A stretch of DNA of 64,000 nt from a virus (Duplodnaviria; Caudoviricetes). The notes below the pieces were generated by a model. That model worked only from the letters and a program-made list of their open reading frames with translations. It did no database searches and had not been told where the DNA came from. The stretch lies in the IMG/VR virus record IMGVR_UViG_3300028833_000071; one strand, 5' to 3'. Shown one piece after another: positions 12,898-44,544 of the stretch. Position numbers and translations under genes: made by a program. Each line of letters starts with the position of its first letter. Positions within the stretch are counted from its first letter, which is position 1.

Positions 12898-13833
12898 ATG
12901 GTTAAAGAGACAACTATATCACCAAAGTTAAAAAGAAAAATGCTCGAAGAACAAATTGATAATATAATCAATGAAGAATTGGGTATTGCAGATGAGGTTG
13001 TTAAACTTGCGGATTTAATTGAAAAACAAGTTTTTTCTCTATTAAATCAAGGTATTACAGAAAAATTTTTTAATGTTAAGACTAAATTATCTGATGTTAA
13101 TGTGGATTTTATTTATAAAGAATTTAGTAATGCGGAAGAAGCATTAAATTGGATAAATAAAAATGGACGTTCTGATGGATATTCATATCAAACAAATACA
13201 ATATATTTAGGTGTTTATTTAATTGGTGGCGTTTTAAATACATTTGACCTTAATGATACAATAATGCATGAATGCAGTCATTATTGGGAATGTAAAAAAT
13301 CAGGAAAAACACAATATAATGATGCGTATGCCACGATAGCAAGGGGAGTGAGTAATTGGAATCCTTGTATTAGCCAATTGTGTGAAATATTATACTATTG
13401 TGATAAACATGAAATAAATTCATTTGTAAATGGAACATATTCAACAGCGATGAAAAAGAAAAAGCATTACGGAAGTTATAGACAATTTATCGCTGATAAC
13501 GGCGTTAGTAATTTATATGTGATGCTTAGAGATGCTGAAGAAATTGTAAGGAGTTTAGAAATAAAAAACAGTTCCTCATTCTTTATTGCTGCATTTTGGC
13601 TTATAAGCAATGGAATATTTAATTGTGAAGCAGAAGAAGTAGTGGATAAAATAATTAAAATTGCTCAAAATGCCTATCAATATTTAATTAGTCGAATCGG
13701 CAAAGCATATGCATTATATACAGCAAGACTTAAGGAAGAAGAAGAAAAATTGAGAGATGCACAAATTAAAATGATGCTTCAAAGATATAAAATTGGAACT
13801 GAAAATAATGAAAAAGAAAAAGGCGAGATTTAA
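12898..13833 (+). CDS. Zincin-like metallopeptidase (HExxH), putative virion cargo
   Basis: IMHECSHY motif; leader IDNIINEELG; paralogous to 60954-61814. Confidence 0.55.
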   Translation: MVKETTISPKLKRKMLEEQIDNIINEELGIADEVVKLADLIEKQVFSLLNQGITEKFFNVKTKLSDVNVDFIYKEFSNAEEALNWINKNGRSDGYSYQTNTIYLGVYLIGGVLNTFDLNDTIMHECSHYWECKKSGKTQYNDAYATIARGVSNWNPCISQLCEILYYCDKHEINSFVNGTYSTAMKKKKHYGSYRQFIADNGVSNLYVMLRDAEEIVRSLEIKNSSSFFIAAFWLISNGIFNCEAEEVVDKIIKIAQNAYQYLISRIGKAYALYTARLKEEEEKLRDAQIKMMLQRYKIGTENNEKEKGEI

Positions 13834-13846
13834 TCGCCTTTTTTTT
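13817..13846. terminator. Intrinsic terminator; IS inserted in its T-tract
   Basis: AAAAAGGCGA-loop-TCGCCTTTTT hairpin. Confidence 0.75.
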
Positions 13847-13973
13847 AGGGAACTATGTACATGATGGCACAAAATTAGAAAGAAATTTCTGATTTTCAGT
13901 TAAAAAACTGGTTTTTCAGGTTGAAAAATTGTATATTCTACACTATAAATAAGTGTAACCAACCTGAATTGCT

Positions 13974-14909
13974 ATGATTAACCTTGCCCATTTCAACTCC
14001 CTGCCCCAAATCTTCCGCCATTTCCGTGACAAAGCCACCTGCCTAAAGTTCATTGAGGAACAAATCTACCCTGACGGACTTGTTGCTTGCCCGTATTGCG
14101 GTGGTATGCACCCATATCGCCGTGGTGACGGACGCTTCAAGTGCCGTGAGTGCGGTTCCTCGTTCTCAATCCTTCAGGAAACCATCTTCCAAGACACCAA
14201 ATTGCCGTTATACAAGTGGTTTGGAGCCATTTTCCTTATGTCAACTCACTCAAAGGGTGTTTCCTCAAAGCAAGCCGCCATTGACTTGGGTGTGACGCAA
14301 AAAACCGCTTGGTTTATGCTCCACAAGATTCGTACCACCTTTGCACAATCAGCCCCAATTCTTGAGGACGAGGTTGAGATTGACGAAACTTATGTGGGTG
14401 GTAGGGAAACCAACAAGCACGAAAGCAAGAAGGTTGAGGGTACTCAAGGCAGAAGCACCAAGACAAAGACACCCGTTTTCGGTATGGCGCAAAGGGAAGG
14501 CAATGTGTTTGCCATCAAGGTTGAGGACACAAGGAGCGCAACGCTTATGCCCATTATCAAGAACCATATCAAGGTTGGTTCAGTTGTTTACACGGACGAA
14601 ACCAATATCTACTGCAACTTGAACGATAACGGGTATGTCAGGGAGATTGTCAACCACAGCCAAAAGGAGTTTGCCGTGGGACGAAAGTACACGAACACGA
14701 TTGAGGGCTTTTGGGGACAATTCAAGCGTATGGTTTATGGCACATACCACTTTGTTTCACGCTACTATATGCAGCGTTACATTGACGAGGCGGTGTTCCG
14801 CTACAACAACAGAAAAAAGAAGGGCGGCGAAAGATTCGCTGCCATTATGGAACACGCCCTGAATGTTGTCACATTCGAGGAGGTTAAGATTGTCAAGTGT
14901 GCTGCTTAA
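13974..14909 (+). CDS. tnp: IS1595-family (ISXO2-like) DDE transposase
   Basis: Zn ribbon CPYCG...CREC, KTAWFMLHKIR, VEIDETYVGG, VYTDE, TNTIEGFW, YIDEAVFRYN; GC content much higher than flanks. Confidence 0.95.
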   Translation: MINLAHFNSLPQIFRHFRDKATCLKFIEEQIYPDGLVACPYCGGMHPYRRGDGRFKCRECGSSFSILQETIFQDTKLPLYKWFGAIFLMSTHSKGVSSKQAAIDLGVTQKTAWFMLHKIRTTFAQSAPILEDEVEIDETYVGGRETNKHESKKVEGTQGRSTKTKTPVFGMAQREGNVFAIKVEDTRSATLMPIIKNHIKVGSVVYTDETNIYCNLNDNGYVREIVNHSQKEFAVGRKYTNTIEGFWGQFKRMVYGTYHFVSRYYMQRYIDEAVFRYNNRKKKGGERFAAIMEHALNVVTFEEVKIVKCAA

Positions 14910-15463
14910 TCATCTATTAGTCTTATAAATGCACAATTGCCGTAATATGATATATCATAGACATCATCAGCGTCCACATAATCATTTAGTTTACTACATT
15001 CTTCTTCACTATCAAACCAAATATATAAAGTCGTCTTTTCATCTGAGAACTTGTAATTCAAATCACCAAAGGGTGTATCAATCAACAAACCATTGTGTAC
15101 ATTTTGAGCATCCAAATAGTTATATACAAACTCATAAAAATCGTCTTTCGTCCATTGTAGTATCTGGTTTTCTTTCAGCACCATCTTTACAGACTCTTTC
15201 ACAACCTTCTTTACAAGGTTATTGACTTGACTTTCGTTCAGTCTTATCGTTTGTTTCTTGTTCATTTTTCTATTCTCTTTTATTTCTTGGTTATTTTCTT
15301 TGTTGTTTGCTTGTTGTGGTGAAGTGTTCTGCAATGCAACACCTGTTTTATCGTTGTAAATCCCGTTTGATAAATATTCAATTATACTCAATATGATTTT
15401 TTGTATTGGTTGTTCAACATGGATTCTTTCGAATGGCTTTTTTATTTTTCTTTGATTCAACAA
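14906..15463 (-). CDS. IS passenger gene, leader-bearing putative virion cargo protein
   Basis: Lies inside the TIRs; internal MNKKQTIRLNESQV...KESVKMVLKE; late motif at 15482-15490; stop overlaps the transposase stop. Confidence 0.8.
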   Translation of the reverse strand: MLNQRKIKKPFERIHVEQPIQKIILSIIEYLSNGIYNDKTGVALQNTSPQQANNKENNQEIKENRKMNKKQTIRLNESQVNNLVKKVVKESVKMVLKENQILQWTKDDFYEFVYNYLDAQNVHNGLLIDTPFGDLNYKFSDEKTTLYIWFDSEEECSKLNDYVDADDVYDISYYGNCAFIRLIDD

Positions 15464-15503
15464 GCATTATTCGTTTTTCCAATAAATAGTTCGGAAAAAC
15501 AAA

Positions 15504-15531
15504 AAAAGTTAGCCTTTATCGGACTGACTTT
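15504..15531. terminator. Terminator-like hairpin at IS right end
   Basis: AAAGTTAG-loop-CTGACTTT; related hairpins near 25520, 40415, 40757 and 44595. Confidence 0.65.
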
Positions 15532-15559
15532 GTGCCATCAAGTATATAGTTCCCTTTTT

Positions 15560-15862
15560 TTATTGTTTCTTGCGTCTTGCAAATTCTGTTTTAAAATCGT
15601 TTTCCATATCTTTATTATTATAAAGTTCCATCATTCTTTTACAAGTTTCCATTATTATGGAACCAATCATTTGTGGGTTGCCTTTTAGACTTTTATCTGT
15701 GTTTAGGTCAACACCAAATTGATAAAGTTTCATTATCAAATCACCTAAATTGGTGCCTTCTTCAAACTTTTTAAAGGGGGAGTCTTCATTTAGAACTTTT
15801 GTAACAGCACTTTTGACAATTTTGCCAAGTTGTTCTTCGTTTATTTTAATTATTTTTTTCAT
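15560..15862 (-). CDS. Small leader-bearing putative virion cargo protein
   Basis: MKKIIKINEEQLGKIVKSAVTKVLNE leader; stop codon lies in the IS target duplication. Confidence 0.75.
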   Translation of the reverse strand: MKKIIKINEEQLGKIVKSAVTKVLNEDSPFKKFEEGTNLGDLIMKLYQFGVDLNTDKSLKGNPQMIGSIIMETCKRMMELYNNKDMENDFKTEFARRKKQ

Positions 15863-15946
15863 ATTTTTAATTTTTTCCCTTTATTTTTCATAAAATTCTT
15901 ATAACATACATAATACCACAAAACCAATTTTTTTCAAAAATGGCGC

Positions 15947-16261
15947 TCAATAATAGCAAACATTATAAATATCTTCAAGAGTTTTTGTCCAGCTTTCAAG
16001 TTGTTCTTTTGTGATGTATTTACCATTAAATTCAAAACCTTCATTAAAGCCACAAGCCAAGTACAACCTATTTTGGCAATATAATAAATCTTCAACGGCT
16101 TGCCCCATTTGTTTAATTATTTCGCTAATCTCATTCATGGTATAACCATTTTCACCATCAATTCCCATTTTTACATTTTCATTCAGAACTTTTTTTACAG
16201 ATTCAGATACAATTTGTTTCAATTGTTTTTCGTTAATCTTAATTTCTTGTTTATTATTCAT
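15947..16261 (-). CDS. Small leader-bearing putative virion cargo protein
   Basis: MNNKQEIKINEKQLKQIVSESVKKVLNE leader. Confidence 0.75.
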   Translation of the reverse strand: MNNKQEIKINEKQLKQIVSESVKKVLNENVKMGIDGENGYTMNEISEIIKQMGQAVEDLLYCQNRLYLACGFNEGFEFNGKYITKEQLESWTKTLEDIYNVCYY

Positions 16262-16297: not shown

Positions 16298-17011
16298 TTA
16301 TGTATTTAAAATGGGGTACATTTTTATTATTCGATTCATTATACTTTTAACTTTACCTTCATATCCTTTATCACTAGCGTATCTTTTACCATTCATATTT
16401 ACAAATGAACCTGGTTTTAATAAATCATCCAATGTTGTATCATCAGCCAAATAATCGTTTTTAATCAAATTAATAAAAGGCACAATACTTTCATCAGGCG
16501 AGGAATAAGTACAGACATTTTTACCACTGTCATATGACCCAACTGAAAAGACGCTATTAGTCGTTTTGGCTCTATTTGTTTGACCAAAGCAAGACTCTAA
16601 GTTTGCAATTGCCAATGTAAATGCAAGGTTGAAGTTGTTTTCTTCACAAGCGGTAACCAATGCTTCTGGAGTTAAGTTAGTTGTGGACCAATCATAACCC
16701 TGATTTTTCATAGCCCATTCCATGTAATCTTTACAGGCTTGTACTTTTTGGTCGTGTATTGTATCGGCTTCAGGCAGCATTTCTTCGACATATTCAATTA
16801 AATCGTCCTTTTCCATTTGACTTATTCCCATTTTATTAACAGCGCCAATGATAGTAGCGGCGGTAATGCCGATTAGAAGTGCTTTTTTAATTTTTTTCTT
16901 AATATCATCCAGATTAAGTGATTCATTTAGTTGTTTTGCTAAAATATATTCACCTTCTTCTGAAATAATGTTTTTTAATTGTCCTTCTGTTAATATAACC
17001 GTTTTCATCAC
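16298..17011 (-). CDS. Glucosaminidase/lysozyme-fold peptidoglycan hydrolase-like protein with leader
   Basis: LAIANLESCFG (catalytic Glu), NSVFSVG and YASDKGY resemble GH73; leader VILTEGQLKNIISEE. Confidence 0.6.
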   Translation of the reverse strand: MMKTVILTEGQLKNIISEEGEYILAKQLNESLNLDDIKKKIKKALLIGITAATIIGAVNKMGISQMEKDDLIEYVEEMLPEADTIHDQKVQACKDYMEWAMKNQGYDWSTTNLTPEALVTACEENNFNLAFTLAIANLESCFGQTNRAKTTNSVFSVGSYDSGKNVCTYSSPDESIVPFINLIKNDYLADDTTLDDLLKPGSFVNMNGKRYASDKGYEGKVKSIMNRIIKMYPILNT

Positions 17012-17996: not shown

Positions 17997-20087
17997 TTAA
18001 TTTTCAATCTCGTCACTTTCGTTTAAATCAGAAATTGCTTCGTTTAGTAATGTTTCACGGTTAATTTCATCTTCATCAATTAATGTCGTGATTTTATTGC
18101 ATATTTTTTGGATATTTTCTTGTAATGTGGCATTTTTAATGTCATAATCCATTACTTCTTCAATATTTTCTGTTGCTTTTTGACTTTCTGACAATAAGTT
18201 CATATATTCATCAAAACTTGATTTTTTATTTGAAGATGGCAATCCTTTTTTGGAAAGTGAATCAAAATATTTGTCAGTAAATGATTTAATTGATTCATTC
18301 AAAGGGGCACCCATATCTGCTTCTGGAGCATCACTCATGTCAGTTTCACCAGTTTCACCGCCCATGTCACCCATATCATCAGCGCCAGGTTCACCCATAT
18401 CTAAATCACCATCGCCAAGGCCTCCCCCCATAGGTGCTCCGCCTCCGCCGCCCATACCGCCGTCTTCATCTTCTTGTTGTGGTTGTTGTTGTGACGGATT
18501 GTGCATTGCATTATAATCACCATATATTCTATCGGTTGTATCAAATATACCAGTATGTTTAATGATATTGGTTGTGGCGGCAATTTCAGAGGCCATGGCT
18601 TTTTCAAGTCTGATTTCGTTAAGCATATCCTTTATTTCAATATCACTCATTTTCATAATTTCTCTCAATGCTTTATGTAGTGACATTAACGGTATACCAT
18701 TACCTGGGTCAGCAAGAGCTATTTGCATTATAGTTAGACGTTTTTGAAGGTCATCTAATTCTTGTGACTCAATAAGAGAAGTTGGATTATTTAATGTTAA
18801 TGAGAAATTACCGATTTCATCAGCAAGCCCCATAACATATAAATGTATCATTGCTATCTTATTAAGTTCCATTAAAAGATATTGTTGGATACGGTTAATC
18901 ATTCTAGCAAATCTGATGTCCAAAAATGAAAGATTTTGTCCTTTACCTTGTGCCTCTTGGAAATTTAAAAATGATTTAGGAACTCTTATTGCTGCAAAAA
19001 TCTTATTTTGCATATATTCAATATCTTCCATTTGAACTTGACTATTAGCTGCTGCAAGTGTTTCGATTGGGTTTGGAGCATCTTCTCTTCTTACAGGAAT
19101 AAAATAATCACTTGACACATCCAAGAAATTTTTCCTTAAATCAACCTGGCCAGTTAACGGGTCTATTATTTGTGTTCTTTTGAATTCATTTGCAATTTGG
19201 TTTATGTATGCAGGTACATCAGCGTCATTAATTCCACCGACATAGATTTTATAAACACGTCTTTCAATGGCCTTATCCAAACGCCATATAAGCATTGCAT
19301 CTTCCATCATAGACCACATTCTCCATGCTCTACGGGCCTTATGAAGCAAACTGCACCCATAGGGTAAAAAGAATGAATCATTCAACAATCTGAAATGTGC
19401 AACTTGCCAATTAAAATAAGGACTATCACCATTATGGCCTTTCCATACAAATCTGATGTCATCAGGCTTTATTTCGCTTGTTTGTTGTACAACAGTTTGG
19501 GTATAAGTTGCACCATAACCGTTTTCTTCCCTATCAACTTCATAAACAGGCATCATCATCCAACCCATGACACCATTTGATTTGTCTATGTTCAGTAACA
19601 TAAATGTATTGCCGTATTTTGTAACATGACGAGCAATCATAGGTAACTCAGTATAAATATGAAGCCTATTGACAAATAAGTCCTCTAATATTGATTTGGT
19701 CCTTTGTGATTTTGAGTATATATTAAGCATTGAACCTTTGCTGTTTATCGGACATGTCTCTTCCGAGATAATATCTAACGCTGAGCCAATTTCACAAGTA
19801 CCATCCATTAAATCGACATCACGGTACATCAATTTGACAGCATTATATCCTGCCAAACTTTCCATTGTATTGTCAGCATTAGCTTTTTTCCATTGATAAG
19901 CTAAATACTTTTGCTGCTTGTATGTTTGTAATTTACGCTCGTATTCTGCTTTGTCGTTTGTTGTGAAAAGAATTTCGTTCCTTTCTTCTGGTGTTTTTGA
20001 AGTCATTACAGTCTGTGAAATCTGATTACTTGTAGGACCTCTAAAAACATCACTAAGTCTTTGAAATATAGTTCTGTTATCTGCCAT
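17997..20087 (-). CDS. Portal protein (T4 gp20-like)
   Basis: VAHFRL, PYG.SLL..ARR.W, MEDAMLIWR...ERRVYKIYVG, DYFIPVR, EDIEY...KIFAA.RVP, DIRFAR; acidic Gly-rich tail. Confidence 0.93.
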   Translation of the reverse strand: MADNRTIFQRLSDVFRGPTSNQISQTVMTSKTPEERNEILFTTNDKAEYERKLQTYKQQKYLAYQWKKANADNTMESLAGYNAVKLMYRDVDLMDGTCEIGSALDIISEETCPINSKGSMLNIYSKSQRTKSILEDLFVNRLHIYTELPMIARHVTKYGNTFMLLNIDKSNGVMGWMMMPVYEVDREENGYGATYTQTVVQQTSEIKPDDIRFVWKGHNGDSPYFNWQVAHFRLLNDSFFLPYGCSLLHKARRAWRMWSMMEDAMLIWRLDKAIERRVYKIYVGGINDADVPAYINQIANEFKRTQIIDPLTGQVDLRKNFLDVSSDYFIPVRREDAPNPIETLAAANSQVQMEDIEYMQNKIFAAIRVPKSFLNFQEAQGKGQNLSFLDIRFARMINRIQQYLLMELNKIAMIHLYVMGLADEIGNFSLTLNNPTSLIESQELDDLQKRLTIMQIALADPGNGIPLMSLHKALREIMKMSDIEIKDMLNEIRLEKAMASEIAATTNIIKHTGIFDTTDRIYGDYNAMHNPSQQQPQQEDEDGGMGGGGGAPMGGGLGDGDLDMGEPGADDMGDMGGETGETDMSDAPEADMGAPLNESIKSFTDKYFDSLSKKGLPSSNKKSSFDEYMNLLSESQKATENIEEVMDYDIKNATLQENIQKICNKITTLIDEDEINRETLLNEAISDLNESDEIEN

Positions 20088-24761: not shown

Positions 24762-25508
24762 ATGAATTTTGGTGAAGCAATAGAAGCCATGAAAAATGGT
24801 AAACGAGTAACAAGAAAAGGATGGAACGGTAAGAATATGTATCTTTGGCTGCTTCCCGCCGCAACAGTTAAGGCTGAATGGTGCAAAGAACCGCATTTAA
24901 AGACCCTTGCAGAAGAGAACGGCGGTGAAGTGGAGTGTCTTGGCTCTATACGGATGAAAACCGCTGACAATAAAGTTTTGACGGGTTGGTTGGCAAGTCA
25001 AACTGATATGCTATCTGAAGATTGGGAACTCTATGGCGAAGATAATGTGGATAAGACAAAAGTATACCGTGATGTAAGATATATTGGTGTTGATGTAGGA
25101 TGTGCGTCTTGGGGTGATGCTTATGTTAATGGGAAACGGGAAGATGAAAATGACCCAATAATGCCATGTCTTGAAAAAGACTTATTTGGTTATAGATGGA
25201 AAATTTTGATTGATGTAACAACAGGACAAATTCTGAACTGGGAAAAAGGAAACAAAGCTAATGTCTATTATAAAGTCGTTGATAATGGTGTTTATCGAGC
25301 GTTTAATGAAGATAAACAGGAAATTTATACCTCACAATCACAATTTAGGTATGTACCCTATATTTTGAATATCAATGATAATGATGGCTATTATGGGTAT
25401 GGTGATTATTTAGGTTTGGATATTGACGAAAACGGCTTTATTAAAGGATGGCCTGTTTATGAAGAAGAAGTTGAATTCTTTATTGATGATTTTTTATCGG
25501 GGTCATAA
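24762..25508 (+). CDS. DUF2829/Tad2-like anti-defence domain fused to unknown C-terminal domain
   Basis: MNFGEAIEAMKNGKRVTRKGWNGKNM...GWLASQTDMLSEDW is the DUF2829 signature. Confidence 0.75.
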   Translation: MNFGEAIEAMKNGKRVTRKGWNGKNMYLWLLPAATVKAEWCKEPHLKTLAEENGGEVECLGSIRMKTADNKVLTGWLASQTDMLSEDWELYGEDNVDKTKVYRDVRYIGVDVGCASWGDAYVNGKREDENDPIMPCLEKDLFGYRWKILIDVTTGQILNWEKGNKANVYYKVVDNGVYRAFNEDKQEIYTSQSQFRYVPYILNINDNDGYYGYGDYLGLDIDENGFIKGWPVYEEEVEFFIDDFLSGS

Positions 25509-25514
25509 TTTGTA

Positions 25515-25547
25515 AAAAAAAGTCAGTCTGATAAAGGCTGACTTTTT
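25515..25547. terminator. Intrinsic terminator, inverted near-copy of the IS right-end hairpin
   Basis: AAAAAGTCAGTCTGATAAAGGCTGACTTTTT; its reverse complement matches 15504-15531 with 2 mismatches. Confidence 0.75.
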
Positions 25548-25553
25548 AATTTA

Positions 25554-25639
25554 GGCAATTATATACCAGTTAACACAAAAATTTTGGTAATTTTCCTCTG
25601 AAAATCGCCTAAATTTTTTGATTTTTAGTGAAAAGCGGC
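25554..25639 (+). mobile_element. IS1595-like left end (TIR plus subterminal sequence), no transposase
   Basis: GGCAATTATATACCAGTTAACACAAAA resembles the intact TIR; subterminal AAATTTTTTGATTTTTAGTGAAAA resembles AAATTTCTGATTTTCAGTTAAAA of the intact element. Confidence 0.75.
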
Positions 25640-26011
25640 TTAATCACAGTCCCCATATTCAAATAAATATGCAATTTCTTTAAAATTTTGTGAAGCATAT
25701 CTGAATGCTTCATCATAGGTTTTGAATACTTTAAATTTTATCCATCCACTTGAATCCATCCCATATTCAACATCTGGTAATAAATACTTTTCTTCAATTG
25801 GGCTAAGCCAGTTTTTTTCAATGCTCACTAAATAACCTATTTCTTTACCGTTATAAAAAATGGTTTGTCTATGTCTACCCCTACCTAAATCCACAGAGTC
25901 ACTAAAGGTAAATTCGTTAGTAACTCCTTCTTTCAACAGTTTCTTAACCGACTCACTCACAATCCTTCTGAGCTGGCTTTCGTTCAATCTAATTGTTTGT
26001 TTCTTATTCAT
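25640..26011 (-). CDS. Leader-bearing putative virion cargo protein (relic IS passenger)
   Basis: MNKKQTIRLNESQ identical to the intact-IS passenger; stop abuts the left-end relic; late motif at 26041-26049. Confidence 0.8.
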   Translation of the reverse strand: MNKKQTIRLNESQLRRIVSESVKKLLKEGVTNEFTFSDSVDLGRGRHRQTIFYNGKEIGYLVSIEKNWLSPIEEKYLLPDVEYGMDSSGWIKFKVFKTYDEAFRYASQNFKEIAYLFEYGDCD

Positions 26012-26054: not shown

Positions 26055-27533
26055 TTAATCGTTTTTCCACACATATTTAATTAGGCCACAATCCCATATT
26101 CTGTCATATCCCAACTCTTTTGCCATCTCGGTTTCCGTCATTGTTAGCGGAAAACCATATTTTTTATGTAGTTTTTGCTTTCTGAAACCAAATTTATGAT
26201 ATCTTTTTTTGGCATTTGACAATAATATATATTTATAGTTTTGCGGAACGAAAGAATCAAATTTAAAGCCAATCTTGGTATAGAAATTATCATTTAATGT
26301 TGTGGACCATCTTCGGTCAGCAAATGATTTTATCATTTTAGGATTATAGTTTTTAATAAACCAAGAAAATATTTTTCCGCCAACGCCGATACAATTGTAA
26401 TCAATATCTGTTGCAAATCTATTTAATTCCCATTCACTTTTGTTTTTGTTTAAAGTTTTAAATGTCATTACAGAAATAAGTTTGTCATTGAAAAATGCCC
26501 CAATATAAATTGTTGAAGAGGCAAAACCTTGTATATGGTTTTTTTCAAGAAAAGTTTTGGCTTCATTAATTGAAATCTCTGATATTGTGCATTTTCGGCC
26601 ATAAATTTTAGATATATTGTTATTATAGTGTAATATGTGTTTCAACTTTTCTTCAACAATGTGTTTATTGTTTTTATATTCATCTTCAAAAATTTGAATT
26701 AATTGTATTCCTTTGCTTTCACAGTTAATTGTTTTTGAAATATGGTAATTTCTATCTTTTCCTGCAAACCACTCAGAATGCCACTTTAAACCATTAAATT
26801 CAATAGCAAGTTTCTTTGATGGTATATAAATATCAAGTTCTTTTCCGTTTAATGCGGTTCTGTCGTTTTTAACATATTTATCGGTTATAATTTTAATAAT
26901 TTCATCTTCGAATTTTGAATAATGGTTTCCGCATTTAGGACAGCCTTTGCCATAAAGATGATTTTCAGCGGATTGTAAAAAATCGCCGTGTTTTTTACAA
27001 GTTATTAAAAGTGGTGTTCTGTAATTTACATATTCTGTTTTATCATATGAATATTTATCTTTATGTACTTTTTTTGCTTTTTCGATAAATTCTTCATTAG
27101 TTAAACCTTTCCTACTTTTCTTTTTATCAGGGTGCCCACAACCTTTTAAATGCACATTTGGCTCTTGCCAGTATTCACCATATACAGGGTCTATTATACA
27201 AACTTTTGTGTGCATGTTTACATATTTAACCTTTGAATAGTCAAGCCCCTCATCTTTATGCACCTCTTTAAATCGTTCAATGATTTCATCTTGTTTAGCA
27301 CGTTTTGACAACGAGATGCGTTTACCGCGTTTTTTAGGGTGACATTTTCCTTTAAGAAAATTTGAAGGTGTTATCCAAAATTCACCATATTCTTCTCCTT
27401 TCTCATCTAAATCATGGTCAATAATACATACTTTGGTCCTATTATTTACATAAAGAACCTTTGAATAGTCTAAATTTTCATTTTTATGCTTTTCTAAAGC
27501 TTTTTTAATAAACTCTTCTTTTCTATCAATCAT
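26055..27533 (-). CDS. Hef-like free-standing homing endonuclease (DUF723-type repeats, Vsr/PD-(D/E)XK nuclease, GNAT-like C-terminal domain)
   Basis: LDYSKV.YVN..TKVCII repeats, ELDIYIPSKKLAIEFNGLKWHSE, ELNRFA, SFADRRWS. Confidence 0.75.
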   Translation of the reverse strand: MIDRKEEFIKKALEKHKNENLDYSKVLYVNNRTKVCIIDHDLDEKGEEYGEFWITPSNFLKGKCHPKKRGKRISLSKRAKQDEIIERFKEVHKDEGLDYSKVKYVNMHTKVCIIDPVYGEYWQEPNVHLKGCGHPDKKKSRKGLTNEEFIEKAKKVHKDKYSYDKTEYVNYRTPLLITCKKHGDFLQSAENHLYGKGCPKCGNHYSKFEDEIIKIITDKYVKNDRTALNGKELDIYIPSKKLAIEFNGLKWHSEWFAGKDRNYHISKTINCESKGIQLIQIFEDEYKNNKHIVEEKLKHILHYNNNISKIYGRKCTISEISINEAKTFLEKNHIQGFASSTIYIGAFFNDKLISVMTFKTLNKNKSEWELNRFATDIDYNCIGVGGKIFSWFIKNYNPKMIKSFADRRWSTTLNDNFYTKIGFKFDSFVPQNYKYILLSNAKKRYHKFGFRKQKLHKKYGFPLTMTETEMAKELGYDRIWDCGLIKYVWKND

Positions 27534-27648
27534 TGCACCAAATGTATTTTATTAAACCGCAATCCCATATTCTGTCATATCCCAACTCTTTCGCCATCTC
27601 GGTTTCCGTCATTGTTAGCGGAAAACCATATTTTTTATGCAGTTTTTG
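26089..27648. repeat. 89-bp direct repeat (26089-26177 and 27560-27648)
   Basis: 87/89 identical by eye; encodes QKLHKKYGFPLTMTETEMAKELGYDRIWDC in both endonuclease genes. Confidence 0.9.
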
Positions 27649-29208
27649 TTTATTAAAGGACATTTTATGTATTCTTTTATATTTTAAATCGGTATTTTTA
27701 GCCGAGTAATATTTATAATCAGGTGCCGTATATTTGTCAAATCTAAAGCCTAATTTAATATATAAATTGTTATTCTCATTGATAGTCCATCTTCTATCGG
27801 CAAATGATACGATTTTATATGGTTTGTATTTATTAACAAAATACTTGAAAATTTTAGAGCCAATCCCTTGGCAAACATAGTTATAGTTACTTGCAAATCT
27901 AACAAGTTCCCAATCAGGATTTTTTATGTTTCCATTTTTAAATGACATTACAGCAATTAGTTGATTATCATAAAAGGCACCGACATAAACACTTGCACTA
28001 ACAAAACCCTGAATATGATAGGTGTTTAAAAAGTTTTCAGCATCATGTTTATAAATTTCTTTTATTTCACATTTCCTTGCCATTATTTTAGGACATTCGT
28101 AATCAAGCCCCAAAATATGTGATAGTTTATGTAAAACAATTTCTTTATTATTAACATATTCATCTTCAAAAATATGAATTAACCCATAACCTTTTTGGTT
28201 ACATAATTTTGTTTTTTCAAGATGATATGCGTGATTTTTTTTCCCAAACCATTCTGTATGCCATTTTAAACCGTCAAATTCAATACCGATTTTTTTATCT
28301 TCTATTAAAATATCAATTTCTTTACCAATTAATATTTGGCGATTTGTTGTAAAATTAACATTATGGTTTAACAAAAAGTCTTGTAACTCTTTTTCATATT
28401 TAGATATGAATCTTGATTTCGGTGTCGTTAGGTTTGTTAGTTTAACAGCATCTAATATCTGTTTTAACATAGTGTTGGAAAGTATTTCTTGTTGTGGATA
28501 TTTATTCCTAAATTCTTCCATTGTCATATTATGTGATAAAATATGGCTTTGTGTTAATTTTTCATATTTATTTCCACAAATTGGGCAAATAACATAATTG
28601 CCTTCTATTTTAAGTTTTTTTTCTTTATTAATTTTTTTGTTATAGTTTTTAAAATACTCAAGGTCTTGTGGAAAATTTTCGATATGTTCTTCAATTGATA
28701 AATTATGTTTTTCTTTTAAATGTGTTTGAAAATATCCACTTTTATTGTCAATATCGCATGTTTCCCATTTACAATATGGGCATTTTTTTGTCTCTTTATC
28801 TCTTATTAAGATTATATCAAACCATTGTTCCCACCAATAATTACCTGTTTCTTGATAATATATTCGTCTATCATATAATGAAGGAATTTCAATATTCAGT
28901 GTTTTTTTAATGTATGAAGTTAAGTATCCACCATTATTTTCATAATCGTTAAATTCAGTACCATCTATTTTTGACTTTGCAATATAATGGAAACCTTCAA
29001 CAGGTTTATATTTTTTGATTTTCCAGTCATCTATCTTAAAATTTCTTTTTTTTATTGATGAGCCTTTTTTTCTTATTATAATTCCTTGTGATGTTATAAT
29101 TTTTTTTGCTTTTAGTTTCCCGATTTTATATGTTTTACAGATATAATCAAGGCCATAGCCATTTTTATAATCATTTGATAAATTATGAATGTCAATTTTT
29201 TGTTCCAT
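27526..29208 (-). CDS. Hef-like free-standing homing endonuclease (Zn fingers, Vsr-like nuclease, GNAT-like domain)
   Basis: CPYC/CPIC fingers, EIDILIEDKKIGIEFDGLKWHTE, ELVRFA, SFADRRWT; ATG 29208 preferred because the late motif lies at 29239-29247. Confidence 0.75.
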   Translation of the reverse strand: MEQKIDIHNLSNDYKNGYGLDYICKTYKIGKLKAKKIITSQGIIIRKKGSSIKKRNFKIDDWKIKKYKPVEGFHYIAKSKIDGTEFNDYENNGGYLTSYIKKTLNIEIPSLYDRRIYYQETGNYWWEQWFDIILIRDKETKKCPYCKWETCDIDNKSGYFQTHLKEKHNLSIEEHIENFPQDLEYFKNYNKKINKEKKLKIEGNYVICPICGNKYEKLTQSHILSHNMTMEEFRNKYPQQEILSNTMLKQILDAVKLTNLTTPKSRFISKYEKELQDFLLNHNVNFTTNRQILIGKEIDILIEDKKIGIEFDGLKWHTEWFGKKNHAYHLEKTKLCNQKGYGLIHIFEDEYVNNKEIVLHKLSHILGLDYECPKIMARKCEIKEIYKHDAENFLNTYHIQGFVSASVYVGAFYDNQLIAVMSFKNGNIKNPDWELVRFASNYNYVCQGIGSKIFKYFVNKYKPYKIVSFADRRWTINENNNLYIKLGFRFDKYTAPDYKYYSAKNTDLKYKRIHKMSFNKQKLHKKYGFPLTMTETEMAKELGYDRIWDCGLIKYIWCND

Positions 29209-29320
29209 TTTTAAAAATTCTTTTATTATATTATACAAATAAATAGTTTAAAAAACAATAATATTGTAAAAAAACCTTTTAATGGTACAAAAAATTAAGC
29301 CTTATAAAAAACAAAGAAAT

Positions 29321-29377: not shown

Positions 29378-31330
29378 TTAACGCATTTCTTGTGGGTCCC
29401 ATTGAGTAAGTCCATCGACCTTCACAGCACCATAAAATCTGTTGTTAACACATTTCTTCGCATATCGTGTCATTATACCTTTTACAGGTGCAAAGTTACC
29501 TGGATTGTAGATGGTTGGGGTTAATTGCATTGGGATATAAGGTGCATAGATGTAACCTGTATCCAATAATGATTTACCCTTGTGACCGATTATGATTGAC
29601 CAAGCAGGTGAATATGGGTCTCTATAGACTTGGTATCTACCGTTGATTGAACCGGTTCTTTCAATACCCATGTTGTATTGGTCGCTTTCAGGATTTGCGT
29701 CTGAAACATGGAAGTATTCCAAGTTGTCGAACAATGCTGAAATTTCTGAAGATACAACGATGAAGTTTGCACCACCTCTAAGGGTTGATTTGTGAATTTG
29801 TGCTGATACTTGATTGATTTTGGTAATCAATTCTTGGTTCCAGTCTTTTTGTGTATAGTTGGTTGAGAAACCAGCTTGTCTTCTCCAACCATTGACATCC
29901 CAACGAGCTTGCCATGGAGCGGCTTTTCTAAGGTCTCTAAGGATTTCACGGTCGATTTCAGCAGCAATTTGTTCTGATAACAATGCTGTTAATTCGGCTT
30001 CAGCGTCAATGTTGTGGAATGCGCTAACGTCTTGGGCAAGTTCAGGTGACCAAGTAGCACGAAGTTTTCTTTCTTCAACAGAAACTGTTACATCGCTAAG
30101 TTTGAATGAAACTTCACCGATTTCAGTTTCAAGTTCTAATGAGTCATATTGTGACCATGCAACATTGAATAATGTTGAAGCGGTGTTTCCTGATTCAAGC
30201 ATTCCGGCAATTATTTCAGGGTCAACGCCAATATAACCGTCAAGTGTTTGTCCTTGTTTCTTTGAAGGTTTAGCAAGGTCAAGTTCGATTAAGATTGAAC
30301 CGTCAGCTTGGCAAGGATTGCCGTATTCAACAATACCGTGGCCATATCTTTGTGATACGATTCTGAAAGGAATACCTTCGTTTTCAACGAATGTAGCATA
30401 ATCATTGGCATCATCGGATTTAATGTCTTTGGTTGCAAAAACTTTTAATGAAGCTAAGAAAGCCTCGGTGTCCATTTCGTTTCCATCAGGACCTGTTAAT
30501 TTACCTGCGTTCCAGTTCGAGAAGCCTTTAACTTTAAGCATAAGATTTCTAACTGAACCGTCAGCATATTTTTGAATTGTATCTTCGGTAAGAGGTTCAA
30601 CTTCGAATCTGTTAAGGATAACAGGTGCTACATCACCAGAAACTCTGATACGGATTTTACCTTTTGAGTTGTCATACAAAAAGTCATTGTAGAACAAATC
30701 ATAAAGAGTTCTCTTATTGTATTTTGTTACATTTGGTGAAAGTTGTCTTATAATAGCACCTTCGCCGGCTTCTGCAACAACTTCATCATAAGTAGTACCG
30801 GAAGCGGGAGTCCAAGATTTACCGTCAGTAGTATATTCAAATGTCATTGCATTAACTACTTCATCAGGAAGATAGAAACGGTTGTATGTGCTGCCATTTC
30901 TTCTGTCTGTTCTTTCGTAGCCCATAAGACCTTTATGACGACCGACTGAACCATCTTTAATTTTGTCATTTTCGTCTAAATAATCCCATTCTCTTTCGCT
31001 TGTTACAGGAAGCATGAAGAACAATTTACCAACAGGTAAGTTCATTGCTTGAACTGAAACAATGTCGTTTGCAAGGAGTTTGCTGAAAACTCTTCTTACG
31101 ATAGGGAATACAACAGTTTCGAATGAACCGCTATTGTCTGAAGCAGTTGCCTCTGAAAGGAGGGCTTTAGCCTCGTTTTCATACAATGTAGCGACATTCT
31201 CTTTAACTATACCCTTAAGACCGTCAACCATACCAAGTGATGACCAACGGTTGGTGATTTCTTGTCTGATTCTTTTCTGCTCGTTGAGTTCTATATTACC
31301 AACTAAGCCAGAAGCTAAAAATTCTCTCAT
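29378..31330 (-). CDS. Major capsid protein (T4 gp23-like)
   Basis: PIVRRVF..LLANDIVSVQAM..P.G.LF, RKLRATWSPELAQD..AFH.IDAEAEL..LLSEQIAAEIDREI, GYIYAPYIP, P.KGIMTRYA. Confidence 0.97.
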   Translation of the reverse strand: MREFLASGLVGNIELNEQKRIRQEITNRWSSLGMVDGLKGIVKENVATLYENEAKALLSEATASDNSGSFETVVFPIVRRVFSKLLANDIVSVQAMNLPVGKLFFMLPVTSEREWDYLDENDKIKDGSVGRHKGLMGYERTDRRNGSTYNRFYLPDEVVNAMTFEYTTDGKSWTPASGTTYDEVVAEAGEGAIIRQLSPNVTKYNKRTLYDLFYNDFLYDNSKGKIRIRVSGDVAPVILNRFEVEPLTEDTIQKYADGSVRNLMLKVKGFSNWNAGKLTGPDGNEMDTEAFLASLKVFATKDIKSDDANDYATFVENEGIPFRIVSQRYGHGIVEYGNPCQADGSILIELDLAKPSKKQGQTLDGYIGVDPEIIAGMLESGNTASTLFNVAWSQYDSLELETEIGEVSFKLSDVTVSVEERKLRATWSPELAQDVSAFHNIDAEAELTALLSEQIAAEIDREILRDLRKAAPWQARWDVNGWRRQAGFSTNYTQKDWNQELITKINQVSAQIHKSTLRGGANFIVVSSEISALFDNLEYFHVSDANPESDQYNMGIERTGSINGRYQVYRDPYSPAWSIIIGHKGKSLLDTGYIYAPYIPMQLTPTIYNPGNFAPVKGIMTRYAKKCVNNRFYGAVKVDGLTQWDPQEMR

Positions 31331-33193: not shown

Positions 33194-33910
33194 TTATTTT
33201 ATTAGCCATTTATCAAAAATTTCGAGTTTTTCTATAATTTGGTTCTTATTTTCTTTTGAAGTGTTGTTTTCAACATATTGTTGCGGAATTTTATCTTCTG
33301 GTGTTATCCATGCATTGGGGGTCGATGGGTCTGATACTACATCCCAACAAACAATTTCATAGTCATCTGAAACATATAAAACACCCATTTTATTGGTTAC
33401 AGTTCCAAGACCTCTTGAAGAAACACCGACTTTAATACCTTGCAAAATGAGATTTGCCACTTGGTCGCCTTGACAAGTAATCATACCATATTTCCTAAAT
33501 CCTGGGCTTGTTATGATTTCAAGTTTTCCTACTAATGTATGACCTTCCCAATGTAATTCTATTATATTAATTGCAACTCTTGATAGGTCTATTACGGATT
33601 CGCTTGGGTGATTACATTCACCTATAGCTCTTTTTTCCACAATTTTTTCCATGTATTTTTGTACCTCACGTTTTAATACATCTTCAGGATATATTCTTCC
33701 GTTTGCGTTTTCTATACCGAATTTTTGGAATACGGCTGAAACAACTAACGGGTATGGGCAATGAAAATCATCATTAATTTTACCTGTACTTATATCTTCA
33801 AAAAGTTTTTTATTTTCTCCTATTTCAGGGGAAATATAGCCATCGTGTTCGATAAGTAAACCAGTACCTGTTTCACCTTTTTTAATTTCAACTAAAGTAT
33901 TTTTTTCCAT
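33194..33910 (-). CDS. Prohead protease (T4 gp21-like)
   Basis: NANGRIYP, AIGECNHP, VGVSSRGLG (catalytic Ser), WDVVSDPSTPNA. Confidence 0.93.
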   Translation of the reverse strand: MEKNTLVEIKKGETGTGLLIEHDGYISPEIGENKKLFEDISTGKINDDFHCPYPLVVSAVFQKFGIENANGRIYPEDVLKREVQKYMEKIVEKRAIGECNHPSESVIDLSRVAINIIELHWEGHTLVGKLEIITSPGFRKYGMITCQGDQVANLILQGIKVGVSSRGLGTVTNKMGVLYVSDDYEIVCWDVVSDPSTPNAWITPEDKIPQQYVENNTSKENKNQIIEKLEIFDKWLIK

Positions 33911-33925
33911 TTTAATATAAATTGG

Positions 33926-35704
33926 TTATAATTCGTCTTCATTAATGAATTCGTCAATTATTATTGATTTATCTAATTTCATTTTATTCATTTTATCTGT
34001 GAATTTGTCGTATTCAATATCTTTTTTGGACTTTGAACATATTTTTGCCATTATTTGTTTTCCTTTTTTAGTTTTTGCCAAAACTTCTTTCATCAAGAAA
34101 TTAAATTTATCAACATCGAGGCAAGATATTCTTTTTAATAAATAGGGCAAATCTGTTAAAGTTATGTCGTTAAATGATTTTGAAACAATTTCCCATAATA
34201 TCGGACCCAATCTCATATCCCATGGTTCGGCTTTAATGAAATCAGATTTACCTATTACAATTTCAGCCAATTTTCTGTTATCAGGTAATCCATGTGATAT
34301 AAACAATTGCATAAGTCCGTTTAATGTCTCACTAAGCAATACAGGGAATATTTCCCCTTGTGCCGTTATTCTTACTTGTCTATCAGGGCCTCCTAACTCA
34401 ACATTTACAGTACCTATTAATTTATTGTCTTTATCATTGATACCAATGTCTTCTTTTGTGAAAAGCAAATAATTGTTAAGGGCAATAATCTTTTTATATA
34501 AGTCGCATAATTCAGGCGACAATTTATAAATACTGTCAAAATAAGAGTCAATATCGGAAGATAATATAATAGATTCACCCATACATAAGGCATTTAACAA
34601 TCTTCGTTTATATACTTCACCATATATGTTTGAAGCCATTTCAATATCGTCAAATTGGAAATCATCGTCGCCGTCAATAGGGTCTATAATTATTGATTTT
34701 GCAGCTAAATCAATTTTATCGGCTAATGAAACATTTATTTGGACCGAATCTTCTGGAATGTTGAATGTGTCAATAACATAATTAAGGCATAAATTTTCAA
34801 GTTCATTTCTGAAAGGTCTTTCTATTTTTTTGCACTTGTTGATTAGTTTTGATAACATGGTATCAATTTTGGTGTCTTCAAAATCATCAATTTTGCCAAT
34901 TTCAGAAAGTGTTTCTTTAATGCTATTAAGCCTGTTATTTGTGATTTTCAATAAAAATGGCACATCAAATATGTCGGGTATTGCGGGATTGTTACCCAAA
35001 GAAGTTGTATGATTGAGCAATGACATTTTAATATCATCGGGCAAATCGTTTATAAGGATATTTTCGTTTAACATTTTTTTGCTTGTTTTTTTATTCTCGT
35101 CTGATTGATATCTTAATAATTTATATGGTAGGTAACCACCATATTCAGCATATTTATCAGAATCTATGGAAGCATTTTTCTTTTTTTCCTGTATTCTATA
35201 AGCATTAGCAACATCGTCAAGTGATGACATTCCTTTTGAAATATATTCCTGCACAGGGATTGAATAAATATAGAAACCGTCATTACTACCGAATGGTGAC
35301 CATTTTCTTAGTGTTTCATTCATAGTTCCTTCAAACAGTAATTTAATGCCGTTTATTTTCAATAGTTGAATCATTTTTTCAAATACTTGATTCGACATAT
35401 ATGTTCTTGGGGCATCTTCGGCCCATACTGTCATAAGTACATCTCCATCAGCGAACCAAATTCTGCCACATAATGTATCACTGCGTTTTGAAGGTATCTT
35501 AAAATCATAAAACATTTCGTTATGCGCTTGTCCACCTTTTCCTGTAATAACTTTTTCTTCTCCATATTCGTCAAAATAGCAAACAAAAGGATATGAATTG
35601 GGATTTTCATAATCCATTTCTATATTCCAAAACGGTAGTGACAAGTCATCACATACAGCGATAAATTTTCCGTTATAATCTTTCGAATAAAATCTTTCAA
35701 TCAT
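33926..35704 (-). CDS. Putative head protein; probable fusion of a variable N-terminal domain to a core domain
   Basis: ATG 35704 follows the late motif at 35724-35732; junction-like linker SDENKKTSKKMLNE near residue 205. Confidence 0.6.
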   Translation of the reverse strand: MIERFYSKDYNGKFIAVCDDLSLPFWNIEMDYENPNSYPFVCYFDEYGEEKVITGKGGQAHNEMFYDFKIPSKRSDTLCGRIWFADGDVLMTVWAEDAPRTYMSNQVFEKMIQLLKINGIKLLFEGTMNETLRKWSPFGSNDGFYIYSIPVQEYISKGMSSLDDVANAYRIQEKKKNASIDSDKYAEYGGYLPYKLLRYQSDENKKTSKKMLNENILINDLPDDIKMSLLNHTTSLGNNPAIPDIFDVPFLLKITNNRLNSIKETLSEIGKIDDFEDTKIDTMLSKLINKCKKIERPFRNELENLCLNYVIDTFNIPEDSVQINVSLADKIDLAAKSIIIDPIDGDDDFQFDDIEMASNIYGEVYKRRLLNALCMGESIILSSDIDSYFDSIYKLSPELCDLYKKIIALNNYLLFTKEDIGINDKDNKLIGTVNVELGGPDRQVRITAQGEIFPVLLSETLNGLMQLFISHGLPDNRKLAEIVIGKSDFIKAEPWDMRLGPILWEIVSKSFNDITLTDLPYLLKRISCLDVDKFNFLMKEVLAKTKKGKQIMAKICSKSKKDIEYDKFTDKMNKMKLDKSIIIDEFINEDEL

Positions 35705-35723: not shown

Positions 35724-35796
35724 ATAAATAGTTTGATATTCAATAAAAAAAGCACATCTTTTAGATGTGCCTTGTGTTAAATGGTATATAATTGCC
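35724..35796 (-). mobile_element. IS1595-like right end (late motif, hairpin, TIR), no transposase
   Basis: Reverse complement of 35772-35796 is GGCAATTATATACCATTTAACACAA, 24/25 identical to 25554-25578; same promoter-hairpin-TIR order as the intact IS right end. Confidence 0.75.
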
Positions 35797-38781: not shown

Positions 38782-40371
38782 TTAAGGTAAACTGTTTAAA
38801 TTATCATATGTTTTGGAATTTAATTGCCATAATTTATCCAAATATCCAAGTCTGCGCAATGATTTATAGATTATATTACCATTTGATATTTCAGATTTAC
38901 CTTTATTTAATCCGCTTTTTCTTTCATTTTTGATAACATCCCATAATTTATCTGCTTTATCGGCAATAATTTCAATTTTATGGTTATCGTTTTTATATCT
39001 ATTATATAAATCAATAAGTTCATCAATATTATCAATATATTTTGCAACTTTTGATTTAATTAAATGTTTGTTTACTTTTGATTTTGCTAATTTATCTCTT
39101 TTTGGCTCAGTAAGCCATTCGTTTTTATCCAACGAATAAACACCGCTTGAGGCATGTGCTTCATTTGTGTCTTGCACATAAACTTCAACTGGGAAACCAT
39201 ATATATTCAAATCTTTATGCTCTTCATTCCAAATATTTTTTAATGAATCAAAGTATTTTTTAACAAATTCCGTTTTTTCATCAACTTTGGAATAATCAAT
39301 CAAAACATGTAAATCAATGTCTGAATATTTTTTATGCCAATTATAATTAGCCAAAGAGCCTGTGATTATAACATCATCAGGTTCAACCCAGTCAACGCCC
39401 AAGAAATCAATAAAATCATCGGCAATATCCATGAGTTTCAATCTAATTCTTGAATCAAGCAAATTGTTTTTCCAAAATTTAGGATTAAGTTCATGTTTTA
39501 TATTAAATGAGGATAAATCAACATCCTCAGGGTCTGTTTCGTCTATTATATTTGTTTCTTTTATGGCCTGTTCATTTAGCGTAAATTTTACTGTGCCATA
39601 ATATTTACCACATTTTGAACATTTATAAACAGGCTCACCACAGATATAAGTTCCTATTTTTCCACCACAATCGCAATAATCGGGGACAATTTCACCTTCT
39701 TCATTTTCTATTTCTTTGTTTTTTGATTCTTGCAATACATCTTTGTCTTTTGAATTTTCGTATTCGGTCCATTTTCTGAAATAGATATTACCTTTAAGAT
39801 ATGCCTCTGCTTCAATTTTCTCAAGTTCTTTATTATCTTTAACATCATCTTCTGAAGTAAAATTAAGATTTATACCTTCCAAATTTTGCATGTGGTGAAT
39901 CATTTCATGGGCAAATGAGCGTAAAATATCTTTAATATGTCTGTCATTGCAGAATATGGTGACTGATTTTTCTTCGGGTGAATAAAAGCCTGTGCGTATA
40001 AATAATCCTTCTTGTTCAGACCAATCAAGATTTAAATCCGGATAAGGGAAAACATTAAGCCCATCTTCTTTCATAAAATTCTCAATTTCATGGCAGTATT
40101 TTCTAATATCTTTTTCACTGTCTTTGTTATTTTCATTAATATGATAATAGGGGTTTAAATCCATGGATTTTTCAGGACCAAGCATAAAAGTATCAGAATT
40201 ATCAGATTCAGTGTTTTCTTCCATAGCACCACAACCTGTTATAGCGTCCATTATTCCTGCATTCACTTTTTTATGAACTTGGTCTTGCGCTGCGGGTATT
40301 TTTTTTTCAGACAACCTTTCAAAATCTTTGATTTTACCTATTTGCTCTTCTGTTATATATATCGTTTTCAT
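38782..40371 (-). CDS. Multidomain protein: leader, HExxH peptidase, Zn ribbon, Pol-beta-superfamily nucleotidyltransferase
   Basis: MKTIYITEEQI leader, FAHEMIHH, CDCGG...CSKCG, ITGSLANYNW...SDIDLH (GS and DxD motifs). Confidence 0.75.
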   Translation of the reverse strand: MKTIYITEEQIGKIKDFERLSEKKIPAAQDQVHKKVNAGIMDAITGCGAMEENTESDNSDTFMLGPEKSMDLNPYYHINENNKDSEKDIRKYCHEIENFMKEDGLNVFPYPDLNLDWSEQEGLFIRTGFYSPEEKSVTIFCNDRHIKDILRSFAHEMIHHMQNLEGINLNFTSEDDVKDNKELEKIEAEAYLKGNIYFRKWTEYENSKDKDVLQESKNKEIENEEGEIVPDYCDCGGKIGTYICGEPVYKCSKCGKYYGTVKFTLNEQAIKETNIIDETDPEDVDLSSFNIKHELNPKFWKNNLLDSRIRLKLMDIADDFIDFLGVDWVEPDDVIITGSLANYNWHKKYSDIDLHVLIDYSKVDEKTEFVKKYFDSLKNIWNEEHKDLNIYGFPVEVYVQDTNEAHASSGVYSLDKNEWLTEPKRDKLAKSKVNKHLIKSKVAKYIDNIDELIDLYNRYKNDNHKIEIIADKADKLWDVIKNERKSGLNKGKSEISNGNIIYKSLRRLGYLDKLWQLNSKTYDNLNSLP

Positions 40372-44245: not shown

Positions 44246-44276
44246 AAAAAAGCCCGATTTATTTCGGGCTTTTTTT
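44246..44276. terminator. Bidirectional intrinsic terminator
   Basis: AAAAAAGCCCGA-loop-TCGGGCTTTTTT. Confidence 0.85.
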
Positions 44277-44544
44277 ATACATTTGTAAATCCATATTTTT
44301 CAAGAACATCTATCAATTCTAAACATAAGTCTTCTTGCATTTGTGAATTGGCATAGGCTTCTATTTTATATATTTTGTTTGTTATTCCTTGAATGTGTTT
44401 ATTAAAGGCTTCATTACTAAATGTCCCATTAACGCCAAAATCCGTTTTACGAAAGCCGCCTTCTTTCAAAACTCTTTTTACTGACTCAGATACAATTTTA
44501 TTTAATTGGTTTTCGTTGATTTTAATAACTTGTTTCTTGTTCAT
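44275..44544 (-). CDS. Small leader-bearing putative virion cargo protein (relic IS passenger)
   Basis: MNKKQVIKINENQLNKIVSESVKRVLKE; late motif at 44574-44582. Confidence 0.8.
   Translation of the reverse strand: MNKKQVIKINENQLNKIVSESVKRVLKEGGFRKTDFGVNGTFSNEAFNKHIQGITNKIYKIEAYANSQMQEDLCLELIDVLEKYGFTNV

Follow-up and report, generated by a model that had tools for sequence, protein, structure and literature searches.

A probable transporter insertion sequence of the IS1595 family with leader-tagged cargo in the genome of a T4-like phage

In the genomes of lytic phages, insertion sequences are considered uncommon and transient, and recombination is seen as the source of gene flux in T4-like phages. 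Passenger-carrying members of the IS1595 family have been described as transporter insertion sequences (tIS) by Siguier, Gagnevin and Chandler (2009), as cited in PMC11891212. PeSL promoter-terminator cassettes mediate modular shuffling in T4-type phages (PMC2839356, PMC4122927). The internal proteins of T4 are diverse and counter host defences, and the part they have in common is only the capsid-targeting sequence (PMC3012670). Proteases of the gp21 type cleave after Glu and remove propeptides, which are sometimes long with several sites (PMC5694885). The DNA analysed here, termed the window, is a stretch of 64,000 nucleotides (nt) from IMG/VR virus record IMGVR_UViG_3300028833_000071. Positions 13848-15554 of the window form an IS1595-family element of 1,707 bp which carries a passenger gene. 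We give a probability of roughly 0.8 to the reading that it is a tIS from a lineage of phages and their hosts, in which cargo genes tagged with a shared leader peptide are swapped. This reading is based on the anatomy of the element, its mobility as one unit, the diversity of its cargo, its residence in phages and hosts and the selection on its transposase, as read from sequence. No publication describing such a phage-resident tIS was found in the literature searched.

The element resembles the tIS in its single DDE transposase with a zinc ribbon, ends of approximately 26 bp, an 8-bp duplication and a passenger located between the transposase and one end. It differs from them in being resident in T4-like phages of lytic type as well as in hosts. 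Its cargo is a phage expression unit (hairpin, upstream motif and leader-tagged open reading frame (ORF)) instead of a regulatory or resistance gene, cargo turnover at the shared leader is fast and many cargo derivatives lack a transposase. PeSLs serve as points of exchange where T4-like genomes are plastic; among the known routes by which small genes move they come closest, although they lack a transposase. They are repeated composites of terminator and promoter which flank variable small ORFs. A possible counterpart here is the pair of a hairpin and the motif ACTATTTAT, which precedes many small genes and is also present at the inner right end of the element. PeSLs act by homologous recombination alone and have early promoters, whereas the element uses a transposase, inverted ends, duplications and a motif of head genes. 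By every sequence criterion the element belongs to the IS1595 family and to its tIS. Its persistence in T4-like phages, its tagged phage-expression-unit cargo, the cargo-only derivatives and the traffic between phage and host appear to be new.

Structure of the element and its insertion site

The element is bounded by 26-bp terminal inverted repeats at 13848-13873 (left, plus strand) and 15529-15554 (right, minus strand), which were identified by sequence comparison. The repeats match at 24 of 26 positions (28 of 32 if extended) and both ends begin GGGAAC..., as in the IS1595 family, where the repeats are a few tens of bp long and start with GG. An 8-bp target-site duplication, also typical of the family, is present on both flanks as TTTTTTTA (13840-13847 and 15555-15562). 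The last three bases of the right copy are the stop codon of the gene at 15560-15862. An earlier note on this DNA, made from the sequence alone, had reported the repeats and the duplication and both were found where it placed them. Apart from two points near the right end, given below, its observations were confirmed, and its interpretation is supported in part.

The transposase gene (13974-14909, plus strand) is intact and encodes 311 amino acids (aa). The protein matched the Pfam profiles PF12762 (DDE_Tnp_IS1595; E = 1e-44, profile positions 2-153 of 153) and PF12760 (Zn_ribbon_IS1595; E = 8e-9, residues 21-61). It also matched the NCBIfam profile NF033547 (IS1595 family transposase) with E = 3e-60 and a score of 203.7 bits against a cut-off of 75. 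Both domain features of the family, the ISXO2-like DDE domain and the N-terminal zinc ribbon, were present. The passenger ORF (14906-15265, minus strand) is convergent to the transposase gene and encodes 119 aa from its ATG, and the two stop codons overlap (TTAA). The GC content is 47.8% in the transposase, 31.9% in the passenger ORF and 28% in the adjoining phage DNA. The profile matches and GC values support the description in the earlier note of a GC-rich IS1595 transposase with a convergent AT-rich passenger. Genes unrelated to transposition are expected inside the inverted ends of a tIS, and the duplication encloses both transposase and passenger. The transposon appears to have moved as one unit with its passenger, as had been proposed.

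The insertion target is the U-tract of a two-way intrinsic terminator hairpin (13817-13843) which is common to the convergent flanking genes. The hairpin is strong on both strands (z = -5.0 and -4.7 compared to shuffled sequence), in line with the claimed insertion into the T-tract of a bidirectional terminator. A DDE transposase with an N-terminal zinc ribbon would act on the two 26-bp inverted ends, and the whole 1.7-kb unit would have inserted into this U-tract with duplication of 8 bp. The orthologous terminator is present without any insertion in the relatives L199 and L197. In two related phages only a two-way terminator separates the orthologue of the gene at 12898-13833 from the glucosaminidase gene. 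The window has, in addition, the element and the small leader genes at 15560-16261. These two leader-bearing genes (15560-15862 and 15947-16261, both on the minus strand) adjoin the element and are absent at the locus in the related phages. No relatives of the gene at 15560-15862 were found in a search of viral contigs. The insertion locus is, on this comparison, a plastic spot.

A promoter-like motif, TTGTATATT, is located at 13929-13937 on the plus strand, 37 nt upstream of the transposase ATG. The window contains 11 copies compared to 2.7 expected, six of which are intergenic and upstream of plus-strand genes, and the motif noted earlier at 13929 was confirmed. Phage-borne copies of the transposase have this motif (with one mismatch in L182), and the closest bacterial copy, L087, is without it. 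The phage copies group together at 92-96% nucleotide identity, with 83% identity to L087. Three phage copies were compared for synonymous (dS) and nonsynonymous (dN) divergence, giving dS of approximately 0.3, dN of approximately 0.01 and dN/dS of 0.03-0.04. Phage-borne transposases are, on these values, under strong purifying selection. The GC content of third codon positions (GC3) is 0.57 in the phage copies and 0.82 in the Bacteroidales copy L087, which fits long residence in AT-rich phage DNA.

The inner right end begins with a hairpin and T-run (15499-15531, minus strand) abutting the right repeat. One central mismatch weakens the hairpin in this copy and its folding is no better than that of shuffled sequence (z = +0.45), so that the terminator predicted here in the earlier note was not borne out. 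It seems that a terminator common in the phage was taken up into the right end of the element. A hairpin, GTCAGTCTGATAAAGGCTGAC, at 25517-25549, after the gene at 24762-25508, is the same as the inner right-end hairpin of the element in a 302-kb relative. A hairpin near-identical to GTCAGTCTGATAAAGGCTGAC also flanks the insertion in L178. Further inward, ACTATTTAT is present at 15482-15490 on the minus strand, facing inward. The late motif claimed at this position is thus present, and it is enriched in the window (20 copies compared to 1.8 expected). It lies 217 nt from the passenger ATG (15265), not approximately 20-40 nt. Read inward from the right end, the cargo of the lineage would be a phage-style expression unit of hairpin, ACTATTTAT and leader-bearing ORF. 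The ORF itself would consist of the shared 28-32-aa leader and an orphan C-terminal domain.

The copy in the window has an intact transposase and a cargo gene shortened from a longer one. Over the 136 bp at its right end, which include the repeat, the hairpin, ACTATTTAT and the ATG of a reading frame that starts MLVESKKNKK, it is 97.8% identical to L180. In L180 this ATG begins an intact gene of 339 aa, in which the leader is internal and lies between an N-terminal and a C-terminal domain, and that gene ends at the same transposase 3' end as in the window. Relative to L180 the cargo gene of the window has a 401-bp frameshifting deletion with its junction at 15419/15420. As a result the original start now yields only a 17-codon ORF (15414-15467, minus strand) which is ended by the frameshift. 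A remnant of the ancestral N-terminal domain (15266-15420, minus strand), 93% identical to positions 536-725 of the L180 cargo, is in frame with the passenger. The earlier note had called the cassette complete, which the deletion and the weakened hairpin contradict.

The leader of the passenger is encoded at 15170-15265 on the minus strand (32 aa ending in L-K-E) and is followed by an orphan acidic C-terminal domain unlike that of L180. A homologue search found a single relative of this domain, in L196 (85% identity), where it likewise adjoins the transposase stop but follows another N-terminal domain. As the window shares the upstream part with L180 and the downstream part with L196, the leader-coding stretch is the apparent crossover point, and cargo would be exchanged by recombination there. 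A 24-nt tandem duplication in the passenger leader (15171-15215) repeats eight helix residues and is not present in L196. The single-sequence AlphaFold model of the passenger had a pLDDT of 50 and was unusable for a fold search, and an ESM Atlas feature search with the passenger gave no usable match.

Relatives in phages and bacteria

Relatives were found by searching with the terminal repeat and with the transposase. Copies of the element on AT-rich phage-like contigs are 92-96% identical at the nucleotide level. One copy is in the 302-kb relative, which is syntenic with the window, at another site and with three other passenger genes. The order of transposase, cargo and right end recurs between other flanks in L180, L176, L007 and L196, with 94-98% identity at both ends. 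A left end identical to that of the window is present at other sites in L003 and L005. The contigs L003 and L184 break inside a left end of 99-100% identity, also at other sites. Neither the element nor its flank had a DNA match among GenBank phages.

Perfect 8-bp duplications were found at nine other elements, eight of the lineage and L008, which has 55% transposase identity. These elements are L182, L186, L178, L173, L187 and L008, together with L087, L200 and L204 in a bacterial setting. Duplications other than T-runs in this and the sister lineage include CATATTTA, AGAAATTT, TTAATATT and TTTTAATT. Five of seven phage-context insertions occupy a strong terminator hairpin, either its loop or its T/A-tract.

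The same ends enclose at least 12 different cargo sequences. Twelve unrelated cargo sequences start right at the stop codon of the transposase, and the convergent cargo stop often overlaps it (TTAA). L178, L173 and L187 have ends and cargo with no transposase gene. Other derivatives retain only the last 60-110 bp of the transposase gene, its 3' end being kept in some deletion derivatives. Derivatives of this kind, having the same ends, would be mobilised in trans. A cargo terminator hidden in the transposase 3' end was considered and dropped (z = -1.25, not called by a terminator scan). A transposase-less element of the clade in the 106-kb viral contig L002 (8624-10485) carries a gene for a GHKL-type ATPase of 517 aa (HATPase_c_3, E = 8e-22).

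ACTATTTAT and a leader gene are paired in six of the 11 complete clade elements of the set. One of the 11 has the leader only and four have other cargo, for example a GHKL-type ATPase. Of the 11 elements only L187 is not on an AT-rich locus. Loci of 38% GC or less mostly have ACTATTTAT and loci of 44% GC or more have none, which divides the loci into a phage setting and a host setting. The earlier note had proposed, as a test, that related phages would carry different C-terminal domains behind the same leader and ACTATTTAT. Such arrangements were found in related phage contigs, often with perfect duplications.

Bacterial loci were also among the relatives. L200 lies in an NCBI bacterial assembly beside amidase, phosphatase and M48 peptidase genes, with a perfect duplication. 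Its cargo is a 375-aa gene with an internal leader. L204, also in a bacterial setting with a perfect duplication, has ACTATTTAT just inside the right end. The cargo in L200 and L204 has a GC content of 28-36% compared to 45-50% in the flanks. L088, in a Prevotellaceae genome, also carries a leader gene. The AT-rich, leader-bearing cargo in these bacterial settings indicates that the lineage moves both ways and is not confined to phages. The earlier description of the element as phage-specialised is overstated. The phage copies have the TTGTATATT motif and are AT-shifted; the same lineage with leader-bearing cargo is present in Bacteroidales chromosomes. Members of the lineage live in the chromosomes of rumen or gut Bacteroidales as well as in the large T4-like phages of these bacteria. 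In such phages the transposase persists under strong purifying selection, accompanied by non-autonomous derivatives, and both move tagged genes with a putative promoter between phages and hosts. The idea that the leader marks IS1595 cargo in general was rejected, as only the three closest (at least 52% identity) of 160 more distant IS1595 loci carry it.

The leader peptide and alternative explanations

The leader is present on at least five other genes of the window, in agreement with the earlier note. In all 18 aligned genes the homology runs up to the Glu of (L/I)-x-E and no further, and the sequence beyond is unrelated. Pairwise comparison of leader codons showed the same residue at 65%, and 52% of those used a different codon. 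The use of different codons for the same residues points to selection on the leader peptide and not on the DNA. Recent gene conversion as the source of the likeness was rejected, synonymous differences being abundant. A leader profile matched 3,251 representative proteins (E ≤ 0.001). Among the top 150 matches the leader was N-terminal in 88 and only internal in 39, and 18 had two or more copies. L-x-E ends 134 of the 146 leader motifs in these matches. P0248, P0249, P0256 and P0257 have the full leader twice, at the N-terminus and again 90-150 residues further in, like fused tagged genes or a polyprotein.

The leader proteins resemble the internal proteins of T4 in that otherwise unrelated small proteins have one short N-terminal peptide in common. 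As in T4, this peptide ends at a protease motif (Glu at P1, Leu/Ile at P3), gp21-, gp23- and gp20-type genes are present, a gp21-type protease being encoded, and conflict-type enzymes are included. They differ from them in the length of the leader (approximately 28 aa), which can be internal or repeated, and their loading and cleavage are predictions from sequence. The T4 capsid-targeting peptide is approximately 10 aa long. To our knowledge the leader is unlike this peptide, no comparison of the two having been run. The leader in the window heads glucosaminidase, nucleotidyltransferase-domain and InPase-domain proteins and several orphans, and it adjoins or is inside a SprT-like protein. Leader-associated proteins with nucleotidyltransferase, InPase (pyrophosphatase), SprT-like and glucosaminidase domains are encoded at 38782-40371, 44620-45237, 45239-46249 and 16298-17011. 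This mix of domains suggests conflict and entry functions. Three leader genes are directly downstream of the portal gene.

There is close to an even chance that the leader acts as a propeptide which targets proteins to the capsid and is cleaved by the gp21-type protease after (L/I)-x-E, with the cargo loaded into the head and injected. The head-packaged effector proposed in the earlier note would fit this boundary and the T4-type head genes. If the leader has this role, proteins could be packaged into the heads of these phages by means of it, and the tag would provide a rapid exchange mechanism for injected counter-defence proteins. It is a bolder and unlikely proposal that the IS1595 lineage is a cassette delivery system for Bacteroidales T4-like phages. 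Autonomous and transposase-less elements would then spread units of hairpin, late promoter, capsid-targeting leader and effector among phages and into hosts. A phage would in that case gain a head-packaged, injected counter-defence protein in one transposition step.

The main alternative keeps the transposon and gives the leader a role other than virion loading. The leader would be a shared helix for oligomerisation, partner binding or as a shuffling linker, the cargo would be cytoplasmic and the element would be a selfish hitchhiker which picks up abundant phage genes. This is possible, if on balance improbable. It would explain why the leader is internal in 39 of 127 top matches and present in two or more copies in 18, although internal and repeated sites are normal in the propeptides of giant-phage head proteins (PMC5694885). 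The presence of leader-bearing cargo in bacterial chromosomes (L088, L200) and the decay of the window copy are also in its favour. The leader peptide had no match in GenBank phages, and virion loading therefore has no backing from the proteomes of cultured phages. The alternative does not sit well with the precise end of leader homology at (L/I)-x-E in every aligned case in a phage with a gp21-type protease. It fits poorly with leader genes which follow the portal gene behind a motif that precedes head genes. Conflict-type enzymes of the kind found among T4 internal proteins (InPase, nucleotidyltransferase domain, SprT-like, glucosaminidase) also speak for virion loading.

Several observations weigh against a tIS that moves leader-tagged cargo as an expression unit. 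The target duplication of the window copy is a low-complexity T-run, its right-end hairpin is weakened and it is partly decayed, with the frameshifting deletion and a motif far from the ATG. An exact-sequence search found no exact empty site, which had been predicted in the earlier note; the relatives found lack the element together with the two neighbouring small genes. The cargo of L186, L179, L187 and L002 is without leader and without motif. Recombination at the leader accounts for the shuffling of parts already present and not for the arrival of new C-terminal domains precisely at the transposase stop. A plain N-terminal signal does not predict a leader that is internal in about a third of the top matches and sometimes doubled. 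The same cargo type is found in bacterial chromosomes, where a virion signal is without obvious use.

It is very improbable that the passenger is not cargo, that is, that a short insertion sequence lies beside a resident phage gene with a stray repeat beyond and a T-rich duplication by chance. The low complexity of TTTTTTTA, the solo and fossil ends in the genome of the window and the leader type of the genes adjoining the element are in keeping with this. It fails to explain the transposase-cargo-right end layout on the independent contigs L180, L176, L007 and L196, with other flanks and 94-98% identity at the ends. Nor does it explain the perfect duplications CATATTTA, AGAAATTT, TTAATATT and TTTTAATT, none of them T-runs, around elements with other cargo. 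A misjoin of bacterial insertion sequence reads into a phage contig, suggested by the host-like GC content of the transposase and the many contigs that break at the element, is hardly credible given the duplication inside the phage terminator at both junctions, the phage-like composition and motifs of the cargo half, the 92-96% identical copies in other phage contexts (including the 302-kb contig) from independent assemblies of other samples and the GC3 of the phage copies, far from that of the bacterial copy.

The host phage and related sites in the window

The window encodes a Gp23-type major capsid protein (29378-31330, E = 8.5e-72), a gp21-type prohead protease (33194-33910, Peptidase_S77, E = 1e-28) and a gp20-type portal protein (17997-20087, Portal_T4, E = 1e-65). 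These genes mark the phage as T4-like; it is a large phage of the rumen or gut. The closest capsid proteins of cultured phages, which infect Flavobacterium and Microcystis, are only approximately 40% identical. Relatives of the protease are abundant in metagenomes on contigs of up to 367 kb, and that of the window itself (P0007) is recorded on contigs that reach 163,973 bp. The capsid protein has 650 aa and aligns to Gp23 and cultured relatives in two pieces over about half of its length, and a sizeable additional or inserted domain is therefore suggested. Two large HNH/homing-endonuclease genes (26055-29238) adjoin the capsid gene.

Of the copies of ACTATTTAT in the window, 19 are intergenic. 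Most of them precede an ATG of the same strand by 15-50 nt, among them the copies before the capsid gene, the scaffold-position gene and the gene at 33926-35704. A terminator hairpin often precedes the motif. Composites of hairpin and ACTATTTAT are found before many small genes and near-identical hairpins recur. That ACTATTTAT is a late promoter is a reasonable inference from these positions.

A second, related type of inverted end, GGCAATTATATACC..., is present at 25554-25579 and 35771-35796 (24 of 25 positions identical). The two ends face each other across 10.2 kb containing the two homing endonuclease, capsid, scaffold-position and protease genes. Their flanks, TTAATTTA and AAAAAAAA, show no matching duplication. 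The left end is followed after approximately 60 nt by a convergent leader gene (25640-26011), and the right end abuts the hairpin and ACTATTTAT preceding the gene at 33926-35704. These are probably two relic ends and not one mobile 10-kb unit. Upstream of the leader gene at 44275-44544, the region 44586-44646 contains ACTATTTAT and a relative of the element's right-end hairpin. With a degenerate right repeat at 44619-44644 (approximately 16 of 26 matches), this region looks like a fossil cargo cassette.

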